Source of the DNA: Thermoleophilaceae bacterium
GTDB lineage: Bacteria > Actinomycetota > Thermoleophilia > Solirubrobacterales > Thermoleophilaceae
Direction of reading: 5' to 3'
DNA length: 64,000 bases
Assembly: GCA_036406475.1 (NCBI GenBank)
Contig: DASXBA010000006.1
Location: forward strand, 1,564-65,563
Part shown: positions 36,430-45,769 of the stretch, one piece after another
Numbering within the stretch: the first letter of the stretch is position 1
How the letters are laid out: each line of letters begins with the position of its first letter
The notes under the pieces: model-generated
What the model saw: only the letters and a program-made list of their open reading frames with translations
What the model was told of the DNA's origin: nothing
Databases searched by the model: none
Program-made: the position numbers and the translations under genes

Positions 36430-38361
36430 GTGACGCTCGGCGCCCGCATGGCCCGTCGCGACCGCGAGGCGTTCGTCGGCCGCACGCGGGAGCTGGCCGA
36501 GCTCGGCAAGCTGTTCGTGGAGGACCCGCCGGCGAGCGTCGTCCTGCTCCACGGGCCCGGGGGCATCGGCAAGAGCACGCTCCTACGCGAGCTCGAGCGC
36601 CGCGGCCGCGAGGCGGGCTGGACGCCGGTGTCGGTCGAGGGGAGGGACCTGCCGCCCGTTCCCGACGCGCTCGAGGCGGCCCTCGCGCCCGCGCGCGCGG
36701 CCGAGCGCCCGCTCCTGCTGCTCGACACCTACGAGCGCATGACCGCCCTCAGTGGCTACCTGCGCCGAGACCTCCTGCCGGCGCTCCCCGACCGCGCCGT
36801 CGTGGTGATGGCGGGCCGCGGCGCTCCGGACCCGGGCTGGTTCGAGGGCGGCTGGGAGACGCTTGCGATGGAGCTCGAGCTGGGGCCGCTGTCCGGCGAC
36901 GAGGCACGAGAGCTGCTCGCCGTTCACGGCGTGCGTGGCGAGCGGGCCGACGAGCTCGTGTCCTGGTCGGGAGGGTCGCCGCTCGCCCTCAGCCTGGCCG
37001 CGGACACGGCGGAGCTCGACGCCAACTGGTCGCCGGCGAGCGGCGAGGAGTCGCCGGAGCTGGTGCGCACGCTGGTGCGGCGGCTCGCGGAAGCCGAGCT
37101 CGACGAGCTCCACCGCGACGTGCTCGGCGTCGCCTGTATCGCGCGCGTGACGAACATCGACCTGCTCCGGTCCGTGCTTCCCGACGTCGCCGCCGAGGAG
37201 GCTCTCGACTGGCTCGGCCGGCGCACGTTCGCCGAGCCGCTGGCGGACGGCGTGACGTTGCACGAGCTCGTCAGGCGCGCGCTGCGCGCCGACCTCCGCC
37301 AGCGCGAGCCCGAGCGCGAGCGCGAGCTGCGCCGGCGGATCGCCGACAGCATCCACGCCCGCGCGGTCCAGGCCCGCCGCCTGCTGCTCACGGTCGACCT
37401 GGCCGAGCTGGTCGAGAACCCCGCGATCCGCAGCTTCTACGGCTGGGACGGCAGCATTCGCAACCGGGTCGACGTCGTCCGGCCGGGCGACGCCCAGCAG
37501 GTGGCGCTGCTCCTGTCGAGCCAGGGCGACCCGGACTGGTGGCCGCTCAGCCGGGCGTTCTTCCGTGAGGCGCCCGAATGCATCGACATCGCCCGGGACG
37601 CCGGCGACGCCCTCTGCGGCTACTCGATCTCGGTTACGCCTTCCTCGGCCCCGAAGCTGGCGAAGGACGACCCGCTGCTCGGCCCCTGGCTCGAGCACGC
37701 CCGCGAGCACAGCCCCGACGGCAACGCGATCCTCTGGCAGTCGGCCATCGACTTCACGCGCGACCCGAAGCTCCACGTGCAGGCGATGGTCTGCATGGCC
37801 GGGGTCCTTCGCTCGGGCCTCGACAACCCGCGCTACGCGTACCTGCCGATCGACTCGCGTCACGCGGGCGCGCACAGGTTTGCCCAGGCGGTGGGCGCAC
37901 GGCGCATCGCGGAGCTGGACGTCGAGGCCGGCGGCCACCTCACCGAGTGCCACCTGCTCGACTACGGCCCCGGGGGCCTGCTCGGCATGCAGCGCGAGTA
38001 CGTCTATCGAGAGCTGGGGCTCGCGCTCCCAGCGCCGGACGCCGGCGCCGTCCGCGACGCGCTGCGCAACCTGCGCACGCCCCACCTGCTCGCGTCCAGC
38101 CCGCTCGCGCGGGGCGAGGGCGCCGACGAGCGCGCCGCCTCCGTCCGGGCCCTGCTCGAGGAGGCCTCCGAGCACGCCTTCGGCGCAACCGAGAACGAGC
38201 AGCTCCTGCGCCGCGTCCTCGTGCGCGGCTACCTCGACCCCGCGCCGAGCCACGAGCAGGCGGCGCGGGAGCTCAACCTCAGCCGCGCGGCCTACTTCAG
38301 GCGCCTCAAGCAGGCCTCGGAGCGCGTCGCCGGGTACCTGGCGCACTCGGTTTCCCCCTAG
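36430..38361 (+). CDS. AAA/STAND-like ATPase with a C-terminal helix-turn-helix
   Basis: FVGRTRELAEL then Walker A GPGGIGKST and LLLLDTYE. C-terminal HTH QAARELNLSRAAYFRRLKQA. The GTG lies 1 nt after the upstream stop. Confidence 0.7.
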   Translation: MTLGARMARRDREAFVGRTRELAELGKLFVEDPPASVVLLHGPGGIGKSTLLRELERRGREAGWTPVSVEGRDLPPVPDALEAALAPARAAERPLLLLDTYERMTALSGYLRRDLLPALPDRAVVVMAGRGAPDPGWFEGGWETLAMELELGPLSGDEARELLAVHGVRGERADELVSWSGGSPLALSLAADTAELDANWSPASGEESPELVRTLVRRLAEAELDELHRDVLGVACIARVTNIDLLRSVLPDVAAEEALDWLGRRTFAEPLADGVTLHELVRRALRADLRQREPERERELRRRIADSIHARAVQARRLLLTVDLAELVENPAIRSFYGWDGSIRNRVDVVRPGDAQQVALLLSSQGDPDWWPLSRAFFREAPECIDIARDAGDALCGYSISVTPSSAPKLAKDDPLLGPWLEHAREHSPDGNAILWQSAIDFTRDPKLHVQAMVCMAGVLRSGLDNPRYAYLPIDSRHAGAHRFAQAVGARRIAELDVEAGGHLTECHLLDYGPGGLLGMQREYVYRELGLALPAPDAGAVRDALRNLRTPHLLASSPLARGEGADERAASVRALLEEASEHAFGATENEQLLRRVLVRGYLDPAPSHEQAARELNLSRAAYFRRLKQASERVAGYLAHSVSP

Positions 38362-40004: not shown

Positions 40005-40241
40005 GCCCTCCCTTTTCACGCAAGGAGCGGGCTCGGTCCCCGAGGAGGCCTTGACCGGCCCGAACGGCGGCTGGTCTACTCGCCCGCAGAGACGCGGACT
40101 AGCGCGAAGAGCGAGGCCGTGAGGTGTGAGGCCCGCCGCGAAGCCGTGTCGACCCCGGTCGGCACAGGCGCGCTCCTCAAGCGCGACCTCCGCGTCTCGA
40201 CTTTTTTGCGGCGGCTCCCGCTGTTACCGTGGCGACCAGCG

Positions 40242-41597
40242 ATGCGGACCCGCGGATTCCTAGTCGTCGGCCTCGCCCTTCTGCTGCTGCCGGCGTCGGC
40301 CGGCGCGGCGGTCACGCCGAGCCGAGACGCGAACGCGGTGGCCGGCGCAATGGACTCCTTCGGCGGCGCCGGCTTCACCGTGATCCCGCCCGCCCCGAGT
40401 CGCCCCGCGGGATTCAGCGGCTCGCTCCAGGCGGGCTTCCCGACCAGGGGCTCGAACTACGCCCTCTTGAGCACGGGCGACGCGGTGGCCGCCGACACCC
40501 CCAACAGCGCCGGCAACACCAGCACGAACAACGGCGGCGGCCCCGGCCCGCACGGCACCTCGGTCTACGACCTCGTCCAGATCAAGGTGAACTTCAACGT
40601 GCCCAAGGGCGCCAACTGCGCCGGCTTCGATTTCCGCTTCCTGTCCGAGGAGTACCCGGAGTTCGTCGGCTCCCGCTTCAACGACGGCTTCATCGCGGAG
40701 CTCGACACCTCCGACTTCAACGTGGCCGCGACCGGAATCACCGCGCCCCACAACTTCGCCTTCGACGACAGCGGTCACGTGATCAGCGTCAACACCACGG
40801 GCTTCTCCGCGCCCAACGCCGCCGGCACCACCTACGACGGCGGCACGCCGCTCCTGCACGCCTCCACGCCGGTCTCGCCGGGAGCGCACTCGATCTACCT
40901 GTCGGTCTTCGACCAGTCCGACCCGACTTTCGACTCGGCCGCGATCCTCGACAATGTCCACGCCTTCAGCGCGGCCGGCGGCTGCCACACCGGGGCGACC
41001 TCGGTCGGGGCGCCGGTGGCGGGCAAGTCCTTCGATGCCGAGCCCGTCAGCGGCAAGGTCTACTTCAAGTGCCGCGGCGACCACGGCCGGACCAGGCTCA
41101 GCCAGGCGGTGAACCTGCCGGTCGGCAAGCGCTGCACGGTCGACGCGCGCGCCGGCAAGCTAAGGGTCGTGTCGGCGGCCAACGGCTCGTCGACCAACAC
41201 CAAGGCGTCGGTCTTCTTCGACGGCCAGTTCCAGATCAGGGAGAAGAAGGCGAAGAAGCCGCTGACCGAGGCGCGCCTGGTGGGCAAGCTCGCCGGCTGC
41301 GGCCATACGTCGACGGCGGCGAGTGGCAAGGTCCAGGACGCGAAGCGCAAGAAGCGCCGCGGCCGGCGCCTGTGGTGCAAGGGCAAGGGCCGCTTCCGCA
41401 CCCGCGGCCGGCACAGCACCGCGACGGTGCGCGGCACCACCTGGCTCGTCTACGACCGCTGCGACGGCTCGACCTACAACAAGGTCACGAAGGGCGTCGT
41501 GACCGTCCACGACCTGGTGCGCCACAAGAACATCCGGATCCGGAACAAGAAGGGCCACAGGGTCTACATCGCGCGGCCGCGCAGGCACCGGCGCTAG
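40242..41597 (+). CDS. secreted choice-of-anchor-L domain protein with a basic FecR-like C-terminal region
   Basis: Signal peptide. FDFRFLSEEYPEFVGSRFNDGFIAEL is typical of choice-of-anchor L. C-terminal VRGTTWLVYDRCDGSTYNKVTKGVVTVHD resembles a FecR-type beta domain. The protein ends RPRRHRR. Confidence 0.65.
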   Translation: MRTRGFLVVGLALLLLPASAGAAVTPSRDANAVAGAMDSFGGAGFTVIPPAPSRPAGFSGSLQAGFPTRGSNYALLSTGDAVAADTPNSAGNTSTNNGGGPGPHGTSVYDLVQIKVNFNVPKGANCAGFDFRFLSEEYPEFVGSRFNDGFIAELDTSDFNVAATGITAPHNFAFDDSGHVISVNTTGFSAPNAAGTTYDGGTPLLHASTPVSPGAHSIYLSVFDQSDPTFDSAAILDNVHAFSAAGGCHTGATSVGAPVAGKSFDAEPVSGKVYFKCRGDHGRTRLSQAVNLPVGKRCTVDARAGKLRVVSAANGSSTNTKASVFFDGQFQIREKKAKKPLTEARLVGKLAGCGHTSTAASGKVQDAKRKKRRGRRLWCKGKGRFRTRGRHSTATVRGTTWLVYDRCDGSTYNKVTKGVVTVHDLVRHKNIRIRNKKGHRVYIARPRRHRR

Positions 41598-41602
41598 CCG
41601 CC

Positions 41603-42970
41603 TTAGCGCCGGCGGACCTTGATCGTTCCCGTCATCGCGACGGGGTGCAGCGCGCAGAAGAGCTGGTAGGTGCCCGGGGTGCGCAGCTTCTTGCGGTAGC
41701 TCCGCCCGCTGGTGAGGTTCACGGACGCGAACCCGCGCGGCCCGTTGGCCACCGTGACGTTGTGGATCTCGCGGCCCTTGAACAGCCAGCGCAGCGTCGT
41801 GCCGCGCCGCACCGAGATGTTGCGGTGGCGGAAGAACAGGTCCCCCACGGTGATGGTGCCGTGCCGGCCCAGCCGCACGCGGCGGCCCCTGGGCCTCGCG
41901 ATCGTGCGCGCCACCCCGTTCCTGATCCCGACGATCGGGACCTTGAAGCGCGGCGCGACAGTGCGCCCGGGTTCCGTCGAGCGCAGGGACACCATGTCAC
42001 TCGGTAACGGCCCGCATGAGGAGCGAACGGTCGAGTCCGGCGCCATGTAGACGATCATGATCCCCATCACCCTCGTGTGGACGAGGGAGTCGTCGTAGTT
42101 GGCGTCCAGCCTCAACCGCTCGCCCTTCGCCACCGGGATTCCCTGCTGCGTGTTGAAGCCGCTCATGAAGATCGGCCCGGGCTCGTGCAGGATCGGGCGC
42201 ACGTGGTAGAAGGGGTGGTCGGGTTCCCCCCAGAGCGGCCGCGAGGTGTAGATCTTCGAGCCGCCGCAGTCCTTTCGGCGCAGGGTGAGGTTCTTGGCGC
42301 CGCCATGCACGTGGCCGCCGCCGGCCACGAGGCGGCCCGCCTCGGGCGCGGTCCAGGTGGTCGAGCGCCGGTAGGTCGAGCCTCGGCGCTTGCCGCCGGG
42401 GACGTTGAAGACGGGGTCGGCCAGGCAGTTCTCCACATCGAGCCAGTACGGCTTGACCTCGGTCTGCGGCGTCGTCTCGTAGGTCACGTGGTAGCGGATC
42501 CACGCCTTGTCGGTTCGGCTCTTGTGGTTCATGAACATGTAGAGGAGCGCCCACGGCTGGGTTGGCGAGAACTGGTAGCCGTACCCGCTCGGCAGGGCGA
42601 GCTTGGCCCCCTCCTCGCCCCGCGCGTAGAAGCGCTCGGCTGCCGGGAGGCTCGTCTTGGAGTCGAAGTTGGTGAAGTTGCTACAGGTGCCGTCGCGGCG
42701 TGCCAGGTTCACGAACACGATGTGGTGAAGCATCAGCCGCCTGATCGGGACGTGCTTGGCATCCGGGCCGGGGCCGTCGACCACGTCGACGTCCATGTGG
42801 GTGATCCAGCCGGTGCCCGGCGGGTGGGGCGCGCCCAGGTAGGCGTACTTGACCTGGTAACCGCCGACGGTCACAGGTCCCACCGTGATGGTCTTCGACT
42901 TGGTCGCCGCCGACGCTGACGCCGGCAACAAGAGGCAGCAGGCGAAAGCTGCCGTAAGTGCTCGCTTCAC
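41603..42970 (-). CDS. secreted PHM/DBH-like copper monooxygenase domain fused to a C-terminal cupredoxin
   Basis: GTG 42970 and signal peptide ALTAAFACCLLLPASASA. Candidate Cu ligands are LHHIVF, FMNH, GGHVHGG and VMGIMIVYM. Cupredoxin motifs are EIHNVT and FCALHPVAMTG. The 883-aa ORF was trimmed. Confidence 0.65.
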   Translation of the reverse strand: MKRALTAAFACCLLLPASASAATKSKTITVGPVTVGGYQVKYAYLGAPHPPGTGWITHMDVDVVDGPGPDAKHVPIRRLMLHHIVFVNLARRDGTCSNFTNFDSKTSLPAAERFYARGEEGAKLALPSGYGYQFSPTQPWALLYMFMNHKSRTDKAWIRYHVTYETTPQTEVKPYWLDVENCLADPVFNVPGGKRRGSTYRRSTTWTAPEAGRLVAGGGHVHGGAKNLTLRRKDCGGSKIYTSRPLWGEPDHPFYHVRPILHEPGPIFMSGFNTQQGIPVAKGERLRLDANYDDSLVHTRVMGIMIVYMAPDSTVRSSCGPLPSDMVSLRSTEPGRTVAPRFKVPIVGIRNGVARTIARPRGRRVRLGRHGTITVGDLFFRHRNISVRRGTTLRWLFKGREIHNVTVANGPRGFASVNLTSGRSYRKKLRTPGTYQLFCALHPVAMTGTIKVRRR

Positions 42971-43072
42971 TCCTTGGCCCGGACTCCGTTCCGCGCCTCC
43001 CTCGGCCGCCGGCCAGCGCTCACTATACAAGAGTTTGCACTTGGACTGCGAAAAGTTGGGATACTCCGGCGC
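42971..43072. promoter_or_regulatory. divergent promoter/operator region (Cu-monooxygenase gene / tetR)
   Basis: Locally AT-rich stretch CACTATACAAGAGTTTGCACTTGGACTGCGAAAAGTTGGGATACT. GATACT lies 7 nt before the tetR ATG, so the transcript may be leaderless. TATAGT is present on the opposite strand. Confidence 0.35.
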
Positions 43073-43651
43073 ATGGAGGCGACGGCCGCAAGGGACGGTC
43101 GCAGCGTGCGCGCCGAGCGCACGCGCGACGCCGTGGTCGACGCCCTGCTCGAGCTGCTCGACGAGGGCGACGTGCGTCCCACCGCCGAGCGCATCGCCGA
43201 GCGGGCCGGCGTGTCCGAGCGCTCCGTCTTCCAGCACTTCGGCGACCGCGAGGCGCTGTTCGAGGCGGCGGCCCAGCGCCAGTACGAGCGGATCGTGCCG
43301 ACGCTGCGGCCTGTCGACCCGGCGCTCCCGCTCGCGGAGCGGATCGACGAGTTCACCGCCCAGCGCGCCCGGCTCTACGAGAAGGTGAGCGGGGTCAGGC
43401 GCGGGGCGATCCTGATCGAGCACGAATCGGCCACCGTCGCGGACCGCCTCCAGCGGGTCCGCCGGGCAAAGGTCAGGGAGGTCGAGAAGGTGTTCGCGGC
43501 CGAGCTCGCCGGCCGCGATCAGGCTGTGCGAGACGCGCTGACCGCGGCCTGCGCCTGGACGAGCTGGCAGAGCCTGCGCTTCCACCAGGGCCTGAGCGCC
43601 GCCCGCGCGCGCGAGGCGATGCGCGCTGCGATTCGCGGGCTGCTGGGCTAG
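43073..43651 (+). CDS. TetR-family transcriptional regulator
   Basis: HTH TAERIAERAGVSERSVFQHFGDREAL. Confidence 0.85.
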   Translation: MEATAARDGRSVRAERTRDAVVDALLELLDEGDVRPTAERIAERAGVSERSVFQHFGDREALFEAAAQRQYERIVPTLRPVDPALPLAERIDEFTAQRARLYEKVSGVRRGAILIEHESATVADRLQRVRRAKVREVEKVFAAELAGRDQAVRDALTAACAWTSWQSLRFHQGLSAARAREAMRAAIRGLLG

Positions 43652-43671: not shown

Positions 43672-45144
43672 CTAGTTCTCTCCGGCCGCAAGCGGGCGGC
43701 CAAGGAGGGCGACGCGGACGTTGTGCAGGTTCCAGACTCGCAGGACGCGCCGTCTGCCCAGGGCGCGCAGGGGGACACGGTTGTCGAATCTGTTCCCCGG
43801 CGCGGCCTGGACGAGCCAAACCCGCGGCATCCTGTGGAACGAGAGCAGCTCCGCTTCGTCGTCGATACTCCTGGCTCGCCACTCCGCCCCTGGGCCCGGC
43901 ACGTTCGGAGTGCGCCCGAGGTACCAGGCGACCGTCGAGTTGCCGCCGGGGTCGCTGACGATCGCATCCTCCCAGCGGGCGTGGGCGCGGAGAACTGCCG
44001 CCGCGCCACGAAAGTCCGGCCCCTGGCCCCGGTACCAGTCGGACAGCCCGCGCGTGTGAACAAGGCAGAGCGCGACGAGCGCGGCCACCGCCAGAGGAAG
44101 CGGGATCCGCGCCAATGCCCCCGCTGCCATCACCGCGAGCCCCGGCACGGCCACGATCAGGTAATAGGCCAGGAACGCGGGCTGGACGACCGAGAACAGG
44201 CCCACGAGCACAACCGGCACGGCAAAGCACAGCACCGCGAGCAGTGTCCGCCACGCTGCCTCACCACGGCGCGGTCGCATCATGAGCGCCCCCACCAGAA
44301 GCACCAGCCCAAGGCACAGGTACAGCTCGAGCAGCAACGGATGGTTCTCCGCACCCGCCACCTCCTCCAGGACGTTCCAGACGCGACCCGCCTCCAACGG
44401 TTGAACCCAGTCGATCCGGCTCGTGTTCCCGGTAGCGAGCAGGACGATTAGCGGCGCGACGACCACCGTGAGGGGCGCCGCCGCGACGGCAGCCTTACGC
44501 CAGGGGATGCGCGAAGACGGAAGCCACGCGAGAGAGATCGCCTGGGCGGCCACGACGAACAGGGCGAATGGGTGGGCGTACGCCGCGAGCGCCGAGACCG
44601 CAACCCAGATCGCCCAGCGACGAGCTGTCGGCCGCTCCACCGCCAGGATGAAGCACAGCGTCGACGCCGCCACGAGGGCCATCAGCCAGGAGTAGGCCCG
44701 AGCGTTCTGCGCGTGGTGAAGCGCCAGGGCGTTGAGGGCGAGCAGCAGACCGGCAACAACACCCGCGGCCCGCCCGAAGCTGCGCCAGGCGATAGCCGCC
44801 GTGAACGCGACGGCGACCGGGAACGCCGTGAGCGACGGCACCCGCAGAAAGGCATCGCTCGAGCCGAGCTTCTCCCAGAAATGCAGGAACCCGAAGTAGA
44901 GGATGTTGTTCGGCTCTACGTAGTGCACGTAGTACAGGAGCGAAGACATGTGCCGGTGCCCGATCTCCGCCGAGACTCCCTCGTCGTTCGCGAGCGAGCG
45001 TTCCCCGAGCTGGATCAGACCAAGCACGAGCGCCAGCACCGCCGTCAACGCCACCGCCACAAGCGCAACCGTCCGACCGCCAAGCTTGCGCCCCAGCCGG
45101 GCGGCGACAGCCCCCCTCGAGCTGAGCCTAGCTCCCTGCGCCAC
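43672..45144 (-). CDS. GT-C fold membrane glycosyltransferase (family 39 / PMT_2-like)
   Basis: About 11 TM helices, with a DE motif in the first loop (SLANDEGVS). The start is uncertain. GTG 45144 overlaps the upstream gene by 17 nt, and the longest ORF begins at TTG 45255. Confidence 0.6.
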   Translation of the reverse strand: MAQGARLSSRGAVAARLGRKLGGRTVALVAVALTAVLALVLGLIQLGERSLANDEGVSAEIGHRHMSSLLYYVHYVEPNNILYFGFLHFWEKLGSSDAFLRVPSLTAFPVAVAFTAAIAWRSFGRAAGVVAGLLLALNALALHHAQNARAYSWLMALVAASTLCFILAVERPTARRWAIWVAVSALAAYAHPFALFVVAAQAISLAWLPSSRIPWRKAAVAAAPLTVVVAPLIVLLATGNTSRIDWVQPLEAGRVWNVLEEVAGAENHPLLLELYLCLGLVLLVGALMMRPRRGEAAWRTLLAVLCFAVPVVLVGLFSVVQPAFLAYYLIVAVPGLAVMAAGALARIPLPLAVAALVALCLVHTRGLSDWYRGQGPDFRGAAAVLRAHARWEDAIVSDPGGNSTVAWYLGRTPNVPGPGAEWRARSIDDEAELLSFHRMPRVWLVQAAPGNRFDNRVPLRALGRRRVLRVWNLHNVRVALLGRPLAAGEN

Positions 45145-45769
45145 GGCCGGCGAGCATATCCTCGACGGCCGCGATCGCCTGCTCGGTGTCCTCGAAGCGG
45201 ACCGCGCGCATCCCGAGCGAGGTCGCGCCGTCGCAGTTGACCTGGATGTCGTCAACGAGCAGGCAGTTCTCGAAGCGGAGGCCGTTGCCCAGCCGGTCGA
45301 GCGTGATCTCGAAGATGCGCGCCTCGGGCTTGCGCGAGCCCACGAAGGCCGAGTCGACCACGACGTCGAAGATCTGGTCGAGCTGCGGGAGCTTGGCGCG
45401 CCAAAGCGGCTCCCACTCGCGCACGTTGTTGGTGCAGAGGGCCATCCGCAGACCGCGGCCGCCCAGCTGGCGCATGAACTCGATCATCCGCGTGTTGGGG
45501 CTGAGGCGCTCGAAGTAGACGTCGCGCAGGGCGTCGAGGTCGAACTCGTGGGGGAGGCCCTCCTGGAGGCGCCGGCCGAACTCCTCCTCGCTGATCTCGC
45601 CCCGCTCGAGCTCGAACAGGGGGTGCTCGCCGTACTTCTCCTGGGCCGCTGCCATCGCCCGCCCGAGGTCCTCGGGCCTGACGCCGCTCTCCTCCTGGTA
45701 GCCGCGGAACGCCTCGCTCAGCGGGGTGGTCAGCACACCGCCGAAATCGGAGACGATCGCGCCGATCAT
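45128..45769 (-). CDS. HAD-superfamily hydrolase
   Basis: Motif I IVSDFGGVL and motif IV LLVDD. ATGA overlap with the upstream gene. Confidence 0.75.
   Translation of the reverse strand: MIGAIVSDFGGVLTTPLSEAFRGYQEESGVRPEDLGRAMAAAQEKYGEHPLFELERGEISEEEFGRRLQEGLPHEFDLDALRDVYFERLSPNTRMIEFMRQLGGRGLRMALCTNNVREWEPLWRAKLPQLDQIFDVVVDSAFVGSRKPEARIFEITLDRLGNGLRFENCLLVDDIQVNCDGATSLGMRAVRFEDTEQAIAAVEDMLAGRGAGS

Follow-up and report, generated by a model that had tools for sequence, protein, structure and literature searches.

Peptidylglycine alpha-hydroxylating monooxygenase (PHM) and DBH are textbook non-coupled dicopper monooxygenases, and this animal family makes amidated peptide hormones and noradrenaline with ascorbate as the electron donor. 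The crossing of the electron from the CuH to the CuM site is still debated, as is the question of whether the active species is open and mononuclear or closed and binuclear (PMC12164859, PMC4846438). Elsewhere among copper enzymes the donor is part of the same chain, as in NiR of Hyphomicrobium denitrificans and NirK of Thermus scotoductus (6HBE), where a catalytic copper enzyme is fused to a type-1 cupredoxin donor (PMC7201279, PMC6400189). Here we describe a gene found in a stretch of 64,000 nucleotides from a Thermoleophilaceae bacterium (contig DASXBA010000006.1; this whole stretch is referred to as the window, G+C approximately 70-74%), the host of which is a soil actinobacterium. The gene (41603..42970, minus strand, stop codon included) encodes a secreted protein of 455 amino acids (aa) in which a SURNod19/PHM-like domain is fused to a cupredoxin. 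We favour, as a fairly probable reading, that the product is a secreted three-copper redox enzyme of Thermoleophilia, with a PHM/DBH-like core fused to a type-1 cupredoxin as internal electron donor, and with O2-activating monooxygenase chemistry.

The fold of the N-terminal domain (N-domain) was taken from two AlphaFold2 models, one of the full-length protein, with a predicted local distance difference test score (pLDDT) of 93.4 and a predicted template modelling score (pTM) of 0.90, and one of the N-domain only, built from a different and deeper alignment of fusion-type and stand-alone relatives (A5), with a pLDDT of 91.9 and a pTM of 0.91. When compared with the PDB by Foldseek, the full-length model returned human DBH first (4zel, chain A, E 1e-8) and then about 30 entries of rat PHM, and the top 31 matches of the N-domain model were exclusively PHM or DBH (E down to 1.4e-9, TM-score on the query (TMq) up to 0.60). 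For both models the PHM/DBH matches had E values of 1e-8 to 1.4e-9, a probability of 1.00 and 305-337 aligned columns, at a sequence identity to PHM of only 12-14%, and the next fold class, double jelly-roll capsid proteins, was at least 1000 times weaker, with a root-mean-square deviation (rmsd) above 12 Å. The original prediction, made from the sequence alone, had read the protein as a PHM/DBH-like copper monooxygenase fused to a blue-copper domain, and had asked for a structure prediction; the match to the PHM/DBH fold is both significant and specific, and was obtained from two models built from different alignments. The models confirm that the N-domain shares the catalytic-core fold of PHM and DBH, with two beta-sandwich subdomains. 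The CuH-like subdomain is predicted at approximately aa 22-170 (42461..42907, minus strand, as all features of this gene; the boundary is approximate) from the AlphaFold2 models, the Foldseek matches to PHM/DBH and the family alignment by hidden Markov model (HMM), while the CuM-like subdomain, predicted at approximately aa 171-311 (42038..42460) from Pfam PF07712 and Foldseek, is the part that matches SURNod19.

Conservation of the proposed copper ligands was followed in an alignment of 103 close homologues, at least 55% identical (A1), and since these are too similar to each other, two more distant sequence sets were added, namely representatives of 50% clusters (847 clusters, E <= 1e-3) and the stand-alone SURNod19 subfamily (approximately 300 aa, at least 818 proteins). 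The merged alignment contained 258 sequences, 142 of the fusion type and 116 stand-alone. All six proposed core ligands, as well as the four type-1 ligands of the cupredoxin, are invariant in A1. In the merged alignment the proposed CuH pair H82-H83 (42722..42727) is present in 258 and 257 sequences, respectively, the proposed CuM motif H220-V-H222 (42305..42313) has each of its His in 257, and the proposed CuM Met, M302 (42065..42067), is kept in 253, the exceptions being four gaps and one Leu. At H149 (42524..42526), the tentative third CuH ligand, the fusion type has His in 134 of 142 sequences and the stand-alone type has His in 75 and Met in 38 of 116, which is an alternation as would be expected for a copper ligand position. 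In A5 (91 sequences, with the two subfamilies approximately 30% identical) 27 of 324 columns are invariant, including H82, H83, H220, H222 and M302. The N-domain has 13 His, four of which are invariant throughout the merged alignment, and these four occupy the positions of the HH and HxH ligands of PHM. Across the family, conservation among His and Met residues is highest, in both alignments, at the positions put forward as ligands in the original prediction. Extra Met residues are found near the proposed CuH ligands, where M80 (42729-42731, minus strand; 246 of 258) and M147 (42528-42530, minus strand; 253 of 258) are kept in both subfamilies, and M145 (42534-42536, minus strand) is kept in the fusion type only (137 of 142), with Asp or Glu in its place in the stand-alone proteins. 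These Met-rich surroundings of the CuH-like site are without an equivalent in PHM and could tune or extend the site.

For the alignment to PHM, the rat PHM core sequence, identical to PDB 4e4z_A (residue 1 = N45), and a PHM family alignment of 41 sequences were used. The comparison of the close-family alignment A1 with the single PHM sequence by hhalign was meaningless (Neff 2.3, probability 0.7%), and it improved with diverse representatives and a PHM profile (P 7e-4, probability 26%; merged alignment P 4e-4, probability 35%). In a search of 270 sequences the HMM of the N-domain family found eight PHM-family proteins at E 8e-5 to 1e-3, and in its alignment LHH falls on VHH of the PHM family, C96 on a PHM Cys, and LaLPkGYGy on LELPKGVGF. 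H82/H83 fall exactly on H107/H108 of PHM, by hhalign as well as by hmmsearch, and hhalign places H220/H222 exactly on H242/H244. H149 lies 66 residues past the HH pair and is one residue off PHM H172 when counted ungapped from a shared L-P anchor, and four off in the HMM and hhalign alignments, with a nearby hairpin loop that differs in length between the window protein and PHM. M302 lies 80 residues past the HxH motif and immediately ahead of the final strand of its subdomain (E303-311), just as M314 precedes CNLYIMYY in PHM; hhalign pairs it with I306 and not with M314, since the window protein lacks the PHM loop 305-313. The resulting order and spacing (82/83, 149, 220/222 and 302) compare with 107/108, 172, 242/244 and 314 in PHM, and with 262/263, 333, 412/414 and 487 in DBH (PMC4846438). 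Counterparts for all PHM ligands had been claimed from the sequence alone; the order is the same and the HH and HxH motifs align exactly, while the third CuH ligand is less certain, with an offset of one to four residues between H149 and H172 and with His or Met at this position across the superfamily.

The C-terminal domain (aa 371-455; 41606..41860) is a type-1 (blue) copper cupredoxin according to PF00127 (Copper-bind, plastocyanin/azurin; 31.7 bits against a cut-off of 21.2, aa 373-452), to matches with plastocyanin and amicyanin in the PDB, and to Foldseek (1pcs, TM-score 0.74, rmsd 2.2 Å; 5fc9, TM-score 0.77). H403 (41762..41764), aligned by HMMER to the His of the plastocyanin HN pair, would be the N-terminal His ligand of the type-1 site, and C439-A-L-H442-P-V-A-M446 (41633..41656), aligned to plastocyanin C-x2-H-xn-M, its Cys/His/Met ligand loop. 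The original prediction of a cupredoxin with a Cys/His/His/Met site in the last ~110 aa is thus well supported, as H403, C439, H442 and M446 align residue for residue with the plastocyanin ligands. Between core and cupredoxin there is an ordered linker (aa 312-370; 41861..42037), which contains C319 and the conserved residues P323, R336, P340, V344, P345 and G362. Its pLDDT of 92-97, together with the pTM of 0.90, argues that in the model the cupredoxin is packed against the core in a fixed, docked position and is not loosely tethered.

By sequence, the N-terminal part belongs elsewhere. An hmmscan against Pfam at E <= 10 gave PF07712 (SURNod19), PF00127 and PF13473 only. PF07712 scores 35.0 bits against a cut-off of 25 (E 9.3e-9), with aa 195-310 on profile positions 267-375 of 377, which is a match to the profile end and not to its full length, while a relative (P0130) matches positions 2-70 instead; the precomputed label PF07712 stands on all of the 120 homologues listed. 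Judged by its sequence, the window protein reads as a distant SURNod19 member, and the N-domain is PHM-like by fold and outside the PHM/DBH sequence family.

Several results weigh against a PHM/DBH-like monooxygenase with a built-in donor. The Pfam families named for a check in the original prediction, Cu2_monooxygen (PF01082) and Cu2_monoox_C (PF03712), were unmatched at E <= 10, and the NCBIfam scan likewise gave neither of them and only sub-threshold plastocyanin and amicyanin models. Sequence searches of the PDB, with the single protein (phmmer) and with a profile of 103 sequences (hmmsearch), returned cupredoxins only, left the N-domain uncovered and found no PHM or DBH. The profile-profile probability to PHM stays at only 26-35%, and automatic alignments leave H149 off PHM H172 and M302 off M314. 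The stand-alone subfamily (e.g., P0261, P0267 and P0420, 'Actinobacteria bacterium') is large and has no cupredoxin, so the core chemistry can do without the fused domain. Three quarters of the loci lack the divergent tetR gene that is discussed below, and clustering of the neighbourhoods of 84 loci found no conserved reductase, cytochrome, biosynthetic or other redox-partner gene adjoining the target gene.

The data given here establish the domain families, the fold, the conservation of the ligands, the taxonomic range and the repeated occurrence of tetR together with its operator, and from them we infer copper occupancy, the direction of electron flow, the O2 chemistry, a substrate and repression. 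In the mechanism that we propose, H82, H83 and H149 would form a CuH-like electron-transfer site, and H220, H222 and M302 a CuM-like site for binding of O2 and substrate. The type-1 copper would take single electrons from an external donor and pass them intramolecularly to the CuH-like site, standing in for ascorbate; this role of the cupredoxin as a built-in electron donor, already suggested in the original prediction, may hold here. The CuM-like site would then activate O2 and oxidise a small-molecule or peptide substrate outside the cell, and a TetR repressor would bind the promoter palindrome and be relieved by a small organic ligand as inducer.

The same architecture could also work with opposite electron flow or by laccase-like type-1 oxidation, in which the type-1 copper would oxidise phenolics or small reductants, or the electrons of the core would be exported via the cupredoxin, so that the protein would be an oxidase or dehydrogenase and not a donor-fed monooxygenase. 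The failure of the 84-locus survey to find a conserved partner gene able to reduce the cupredoxin speaks for this, as does the presence of multicopper enzymes with type-1 sites (9cck, 2xu9) among the structural neighbours of the C-terminal domain; the protein is moreover extracellular, and to our knowledge neither soluble cytochrome c donors nor ascorbate donors are known in the lineage. However, the His2Met site that defines O2 activation in PHM/DBH is strictly conserved here, all characterised enzymes with the PHM fold take up electrons at the His3 site (PMC12164859), and the tethered cupredoxins of NirK act as donors (PMC7201279, PMC6400189). We therefore consider reversed or laccase-like electron flow unlikely.

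Even less can be expected of a non-catalytic role in extracellular copper sequestration, buffering or delivery, in which the His and Met residues would bind Cu(I)/Cu(II) and the cupredoxin would be a further copper-binding module; we regard this as improbable. The Met-rich region around the HH pair and H149 (M80, M145, M147) would suit such a role, no substrate or pathway context was found for the gene, and plant Nod19 offers a parallel, as in bean it has been validated as a target of miR398, a copper microRNA, and its transcript level changes with the copper supply, rising in excess and falling in deficiency (PMC3882225). But a complete Cys/His/His/Met type-1 site is commonly a mark of electron transfer and not of storage, and the PHM-type pattern of His3 and His2Met is kept over approximately 30% identity. 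Regulation by a TetR-type repressor also fits poorly, because repressors of this type usually sense organic ligands, while copper genes are under CsoR, CopY, CueR or CopRS; no copper sensor was identified among the recurrent neighbour families, which were not systematically annotated. Finally, that the N-domain is a metal-free beta-sandwich, e.g., a glycan-binding or PNGase F-like hydrolytic module with a fold-level likeness to PHM and a coincidental His/Met pattern, can hardly be right: the PHM fold does occur in PNGase F, a non-copper enzyme, identity to PHM is as low as 12-14% and Pfam assigns the N-domain to no copper monooxygenase family, but PNGase F is outside the top 50 Foldseek matches of both models, the four invariant His out of 13 are those of the PHM HH/HxH positions, with a fifth position alternating between His and Met, and the fusion partner of the domain is a genuine copper domain.

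Returning to the PHM/DBH-like core with its attached donor, the models also bear on its conformation. In both Foldseek runs the TM-score tracks the conformation of the template: for the N-domain model TMq was 0.60 with DBH chain A and 0.54 with PHM H108A-citrate (6ALA), both closed, 0.48 with DBH chain B and 0.47-0.50 with PHM entries (approximately 11 Å), which are open, and 0.43-0.47 with the fully open templates (approximately 14 Å) 8dsl, 8dsn and 8dsj, and the order was the same with the full-length model. Chain A of 4zel and 6ALA are closed conformers with a modelled Cu-Cu distance of 4-5 Å (PMC12164859, PMC4846438). This suggests that the two subdomains of the model are in a closed arrangement, for which DBH chain A and the crystal of PHM H108A-citrate are so far the only examples. 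Four cysteines of the mature protein are not ligands, C96, C182, C235 and C319. C96 and C182, one in each subdomain, hardly vary in either subfamily (both kept in 255 of 258 sequences), and C235 and C319 occur together and in the fusion-type subfamily only; this pattern would be consistent with disulfides C96-C182 and C235-C319. A bolder and doubtful extension would be that this is a permanently closed enzyme of the PHM/DBH type, its subdomains possibly stapled by C96-C182 and its near-binuclear copper site fed by a hard-wired type-1 copper, and that the whole SURNod19 superfamily, including MtN19/Nod19 of plants, consists of unrecognised copper oxygenases.

Regarding the protein start, the NCBI record (P0001, 441 aa, 'plastocyanin/azurin family copper-binding protein [Thermoleophilaceae bacterium]') is 100% identical to the window protein, and its annotated start lies 14 codons downstream of the GTG at 42970, so that the signal peptide would be lost with that start. 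We prefer GTG 42970 as the start codon. The N-terminus then reads VKRALTAAFACCLLLPASASA|ATKS, with a positive charge, a hydrophobic stretch and PASASA|A, and was read by eye as a probable Sec-type signal peptide (aa 1-21, VKRALTAAFACCLLLPASASA; 42908..42970) with a probable AxA cleavage site; neither a twin-arginine motif nor a lipobox was seen at this N-terminus when read in the same way. Hydrophobic N-terminal segments ending in AxA are also present in the aligned homologues. The motifs on which the original prediction relied were all found in place when the translation and the codon coordinates were checked, namely LHHIVF (81-86), FMNH (146-149), GGHVHGG (218-224), VMGIMIVYM (301-309), EIHNVT (401-406) and FCALHPVAM (438-446).

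A pattern scan with one genome per species found a relative of the fusion in the genomes of at least 210 species, and the 80 loci that were returned come from Thermoleophilia or from less precisely labelled Actinomycetota (Thermoleophilaceae, Solirubrobacterales, Conexibacter, Paraconexibacter), with the exception of a single 'Bifidobacterium breve' record. This exception (L064, CAMCUD010000001.1, a 417 kb contig), with a copy that is 50% identical, is from a metagenome-assembled genome and is probably a mislabelled or contaminated assembly. Cultured carriers of the fusion gene are Conexibacter sp. CPCC 206217 and Svornostia abyssi J379, the latter with two copies (NZ_CP088295.1; L059 at approximately 1.58 Mb and L061 at 0.95 Mb), of which only L061 has the divergent tetR and the operator. 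A search of metagenome proteins gave more than 1486 matches. Among 89 representatives with an N-domain that is complete at its C-terminal end, the cupredoxin is present in 47, and the rest are mostly truncated or frameshifted, with a genuinely short minority. A profile of P0261 and P0267, two relatives that share a PC..CYIT motif absent from the window protein, was aimed at plant Nod19 and found only bacterial stand-alone proteins among the 120 matches listed. One distant relative without a cupredoxin (P0254, 707 aa) is extended at its N-terminus by approximately 380 residues, in which membrane segments are predicted and long repeats rich in His, Gly and Asp occur (GHGHDGSGSHGHGAG...); this extension may be a further metal-binding accessory of the core.

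Upstream of the fusion gene and divergent from it lies a gene for a TetR-family regulator (43073..43651, plus strand; PF00440 TetR_N, E 9e-10), with a probable start at ATG 43073 (MEATAARDG...). Between the two genes there is an imperfect palindrome, ACTTTTCGCAG-TCCAA-GTGCAAACTC (43031..43056, minus strand), which, from the alignment of 24 tetR-target intergenic regions and a scan with a position weight matrix (PWM), is a candidate operator for TetR and overlaps the -35 region of the promoter of the target gene. The family consensus in this alignment (loci L004-L072, at the same relative position) is AGTTCTTGCAG-N5-CTGCAAGAAC, and immediately downstream of the palindrome there is a -10-like hexamer, TATAGT in the window (43022..43027, minus strand) and TATACT or TATAGT in all aligned intergenic regions. 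In many orthologues of the same alignment (L017-L045 and others) the GTG start follows the TATACT hexamer by approximately 7 nt, which suggests leaderless transcripts; the window and L004, unlike these, have a leader of approximately 50 nt with GGGAGG.

The PWM scan covered 84 loci (approximately 1 Mb, both strands) and replaced a strict regular expression that missed half of the sites. Scores of 25 and higher were confined to the tetR-target intergenic region in loci with tetR, where the motif mostly scored on the two strands alike, and all but one of the sites there reached this level. The exception, the site of L029, scored 16.9, no better than four scattered matches of 14-17 in loci without tetR, where no comparable palindrome was seen upstream of the target gene. 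As the PWM was trained on the same sites, the absolute scores are circular, and the informative results are the lack of strong matches elsewhere and the two-strand symmetry. In a survey of the same 84 loci by tblastn of the neighbour genes of the window, an orthologous tetR was divergent and within 400 bp of the target in 23, five of which have otherwise different neighbourhoods (L030, L034, L038, L056, L061). The earlier suggestion of substrate regulation through the divergent tetR is upheld in part, in that the orthologous pair recurs with a conserved palindromic operator in 23 of the 84 loci. A divergent TetR repressor probably controls transcription here and in about a quarter of the relatives, and its binding to the conserved palindrome at the promoter would point to a small organic molecule as the inducer. 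The idea that tetR is a window-specific insertion, which arose from three loci, was rejected by the 84-locus survey, in which only the PMT_2 glycosyltransferase was specific to the window.

The recurrent neighbour families are FxsA, DUF7064, HAD, a PNPOx-like gene, AddAB-type helicases and a SNase-like gene only. HAD, DUF7064 and FxsA are found upstream on the strand of the target in 48, 37 and 35 of the 84 loci, respectively, and this neighbourhood is read as lineage synteny that is uninformative on function. The PMT_2-family membrane glycosyltransferase (527 aa, 43672-45255, minus strand) lies between the HAD gene and tetR, and since it has no counterpart at this position in 83 related loci, it looks like a recent insertion into the arrangement FxsA-DUF7064-HAD-(tetR)-target. 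On the other side, and convergent with the target, a long open reading frame (40119-41597, plus strand) has no Pfam match. Its product contains a segment that resembles a signal peptide, and the C-terminal third is extremely basic and rich in Lys/Arg; its counterpart in L001 is 80% identical by tblastn and recorded as a 'choice-of-anchor L' protein (PF26766), and it adjoins the target in only 3 of the 84 loci. Farther away, a STAND-type NTPase of 643 aa (36430-38361, plus strand; AAA_16, nSTAND) with a C-terminal regulator-like region is conserved downstream in L001 and is unrelated to the fusion gene.

In the plant and fungal literature up to 2026 the function of Nod19 is termed unknown or elusive. 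Full-text searches, with most subscription journals outside their coverage, returned no paper that names both Nod19/MtN19 and PHM or DBH, although a record of the fold link may exist at database level, and within the same coverage no paper was found on a cupredoxin-fused PHM-like enzyme; MtN19 matches in two Pseudomonas papers were plasmid names (MTN1907) and irrelevant. What is already known is the PHM/DBH fold and its metal-site logic, the tethered type-1 donor in NirK, and the architecture itself as far as it is visible in database domain annotations, while the combination of PHM/DBH with a cupredoxin, the SURNod19 family, the extracellular setting in a bacterium and a geometry that appears closed are uncharacterised. 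From the fold and the conservation we infer everything else that is said here about this enzyme. For the debate on PHM/DBH a bacterial relative would be useful, as it is small, comes from cultured organisms and has in its type-1 copper a spectroscopically distinct entry point for electrons, so that electron transfer within the molecule would be open to direct measurement without ascorbate. Should the closed-like geometry of the models hold true, the protein would be a stable example of the closed PHM/DBH state. For the SURNod19 family, a copper oxygenase would be the first concrete biochemical hypothesis, by which Nod19 gains a testable function, and this is of value for copper-enzyme specialists.

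Compared with PHM (rat PAM core, 1PHM, 1SDW, 6ALA) and human DBH (4ZEL), the window protein has the same two-subdomain beta-sandwich core, the order HH...H...HxH...M at near-identical spacing, the LxLPxGxGF/Y motif and one Cys in common, and a secretory or extracellular location. It differs in the absence of the PHM loop 305-313 before the Met ligand, in its cysteine pattern, in a family-specific LHEPGP insertion with invariant H262 and E263, in the lack of a DOMON or PAL domain, in the fused type-1 cupredoxin that takes the place of reliance on ascorbate, and in its bacterial host, and its models are nearer to the rare closed conformers (4zel chain A, 6ALA) than to the usual open form. With plant and fungal Nod19/MtN19 it shares PF07712, the sole Pfam family of the N-terminal part, and the property of being secreted; unlike it, plant Nod19 has no cupredoxin, and the match of the window protein is restricted to profile positions 267-375 of 377. 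The stand-alone SURNod19 proteins (approximately 300 aa) have the two-subdomain core at approximately 30% identity and keep HH, HxH, VMG, C96 and C182, but they are without the linker, the cupredoxin, the LHEPGP loop and C235, have Met at position 149 in a third of cases, and possess an extra conserved His of their own in an SD.H..W motif.

With regard to the attached donor, Foldseek places 6hbe and 9cck among the structural neighbours of the C-terminal domain. The cupredoxin-tethered NirK enzymes are different in that they have a trimeric core of two cupredoxins, carry their type-2 copper at the subunit interface, reduce nitrite and are unrelated to the PHM fold. Plastocyanin and amicyanin (1BXU, 1PCS, 1AAC) are alike in fold (TM-score 0.74), in the His/Cys/His/Met ligands and in PF00127, but they are free soluble carriers, while here the cupredoxin is the C-terminal domain of an enzyme. 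In the ligand loop, amicyanin has spacings of x2 and x2 and plastocyanin of x2 and x4, and the C-x2-H-x3-M loop of the window protein is intermediate between the two.

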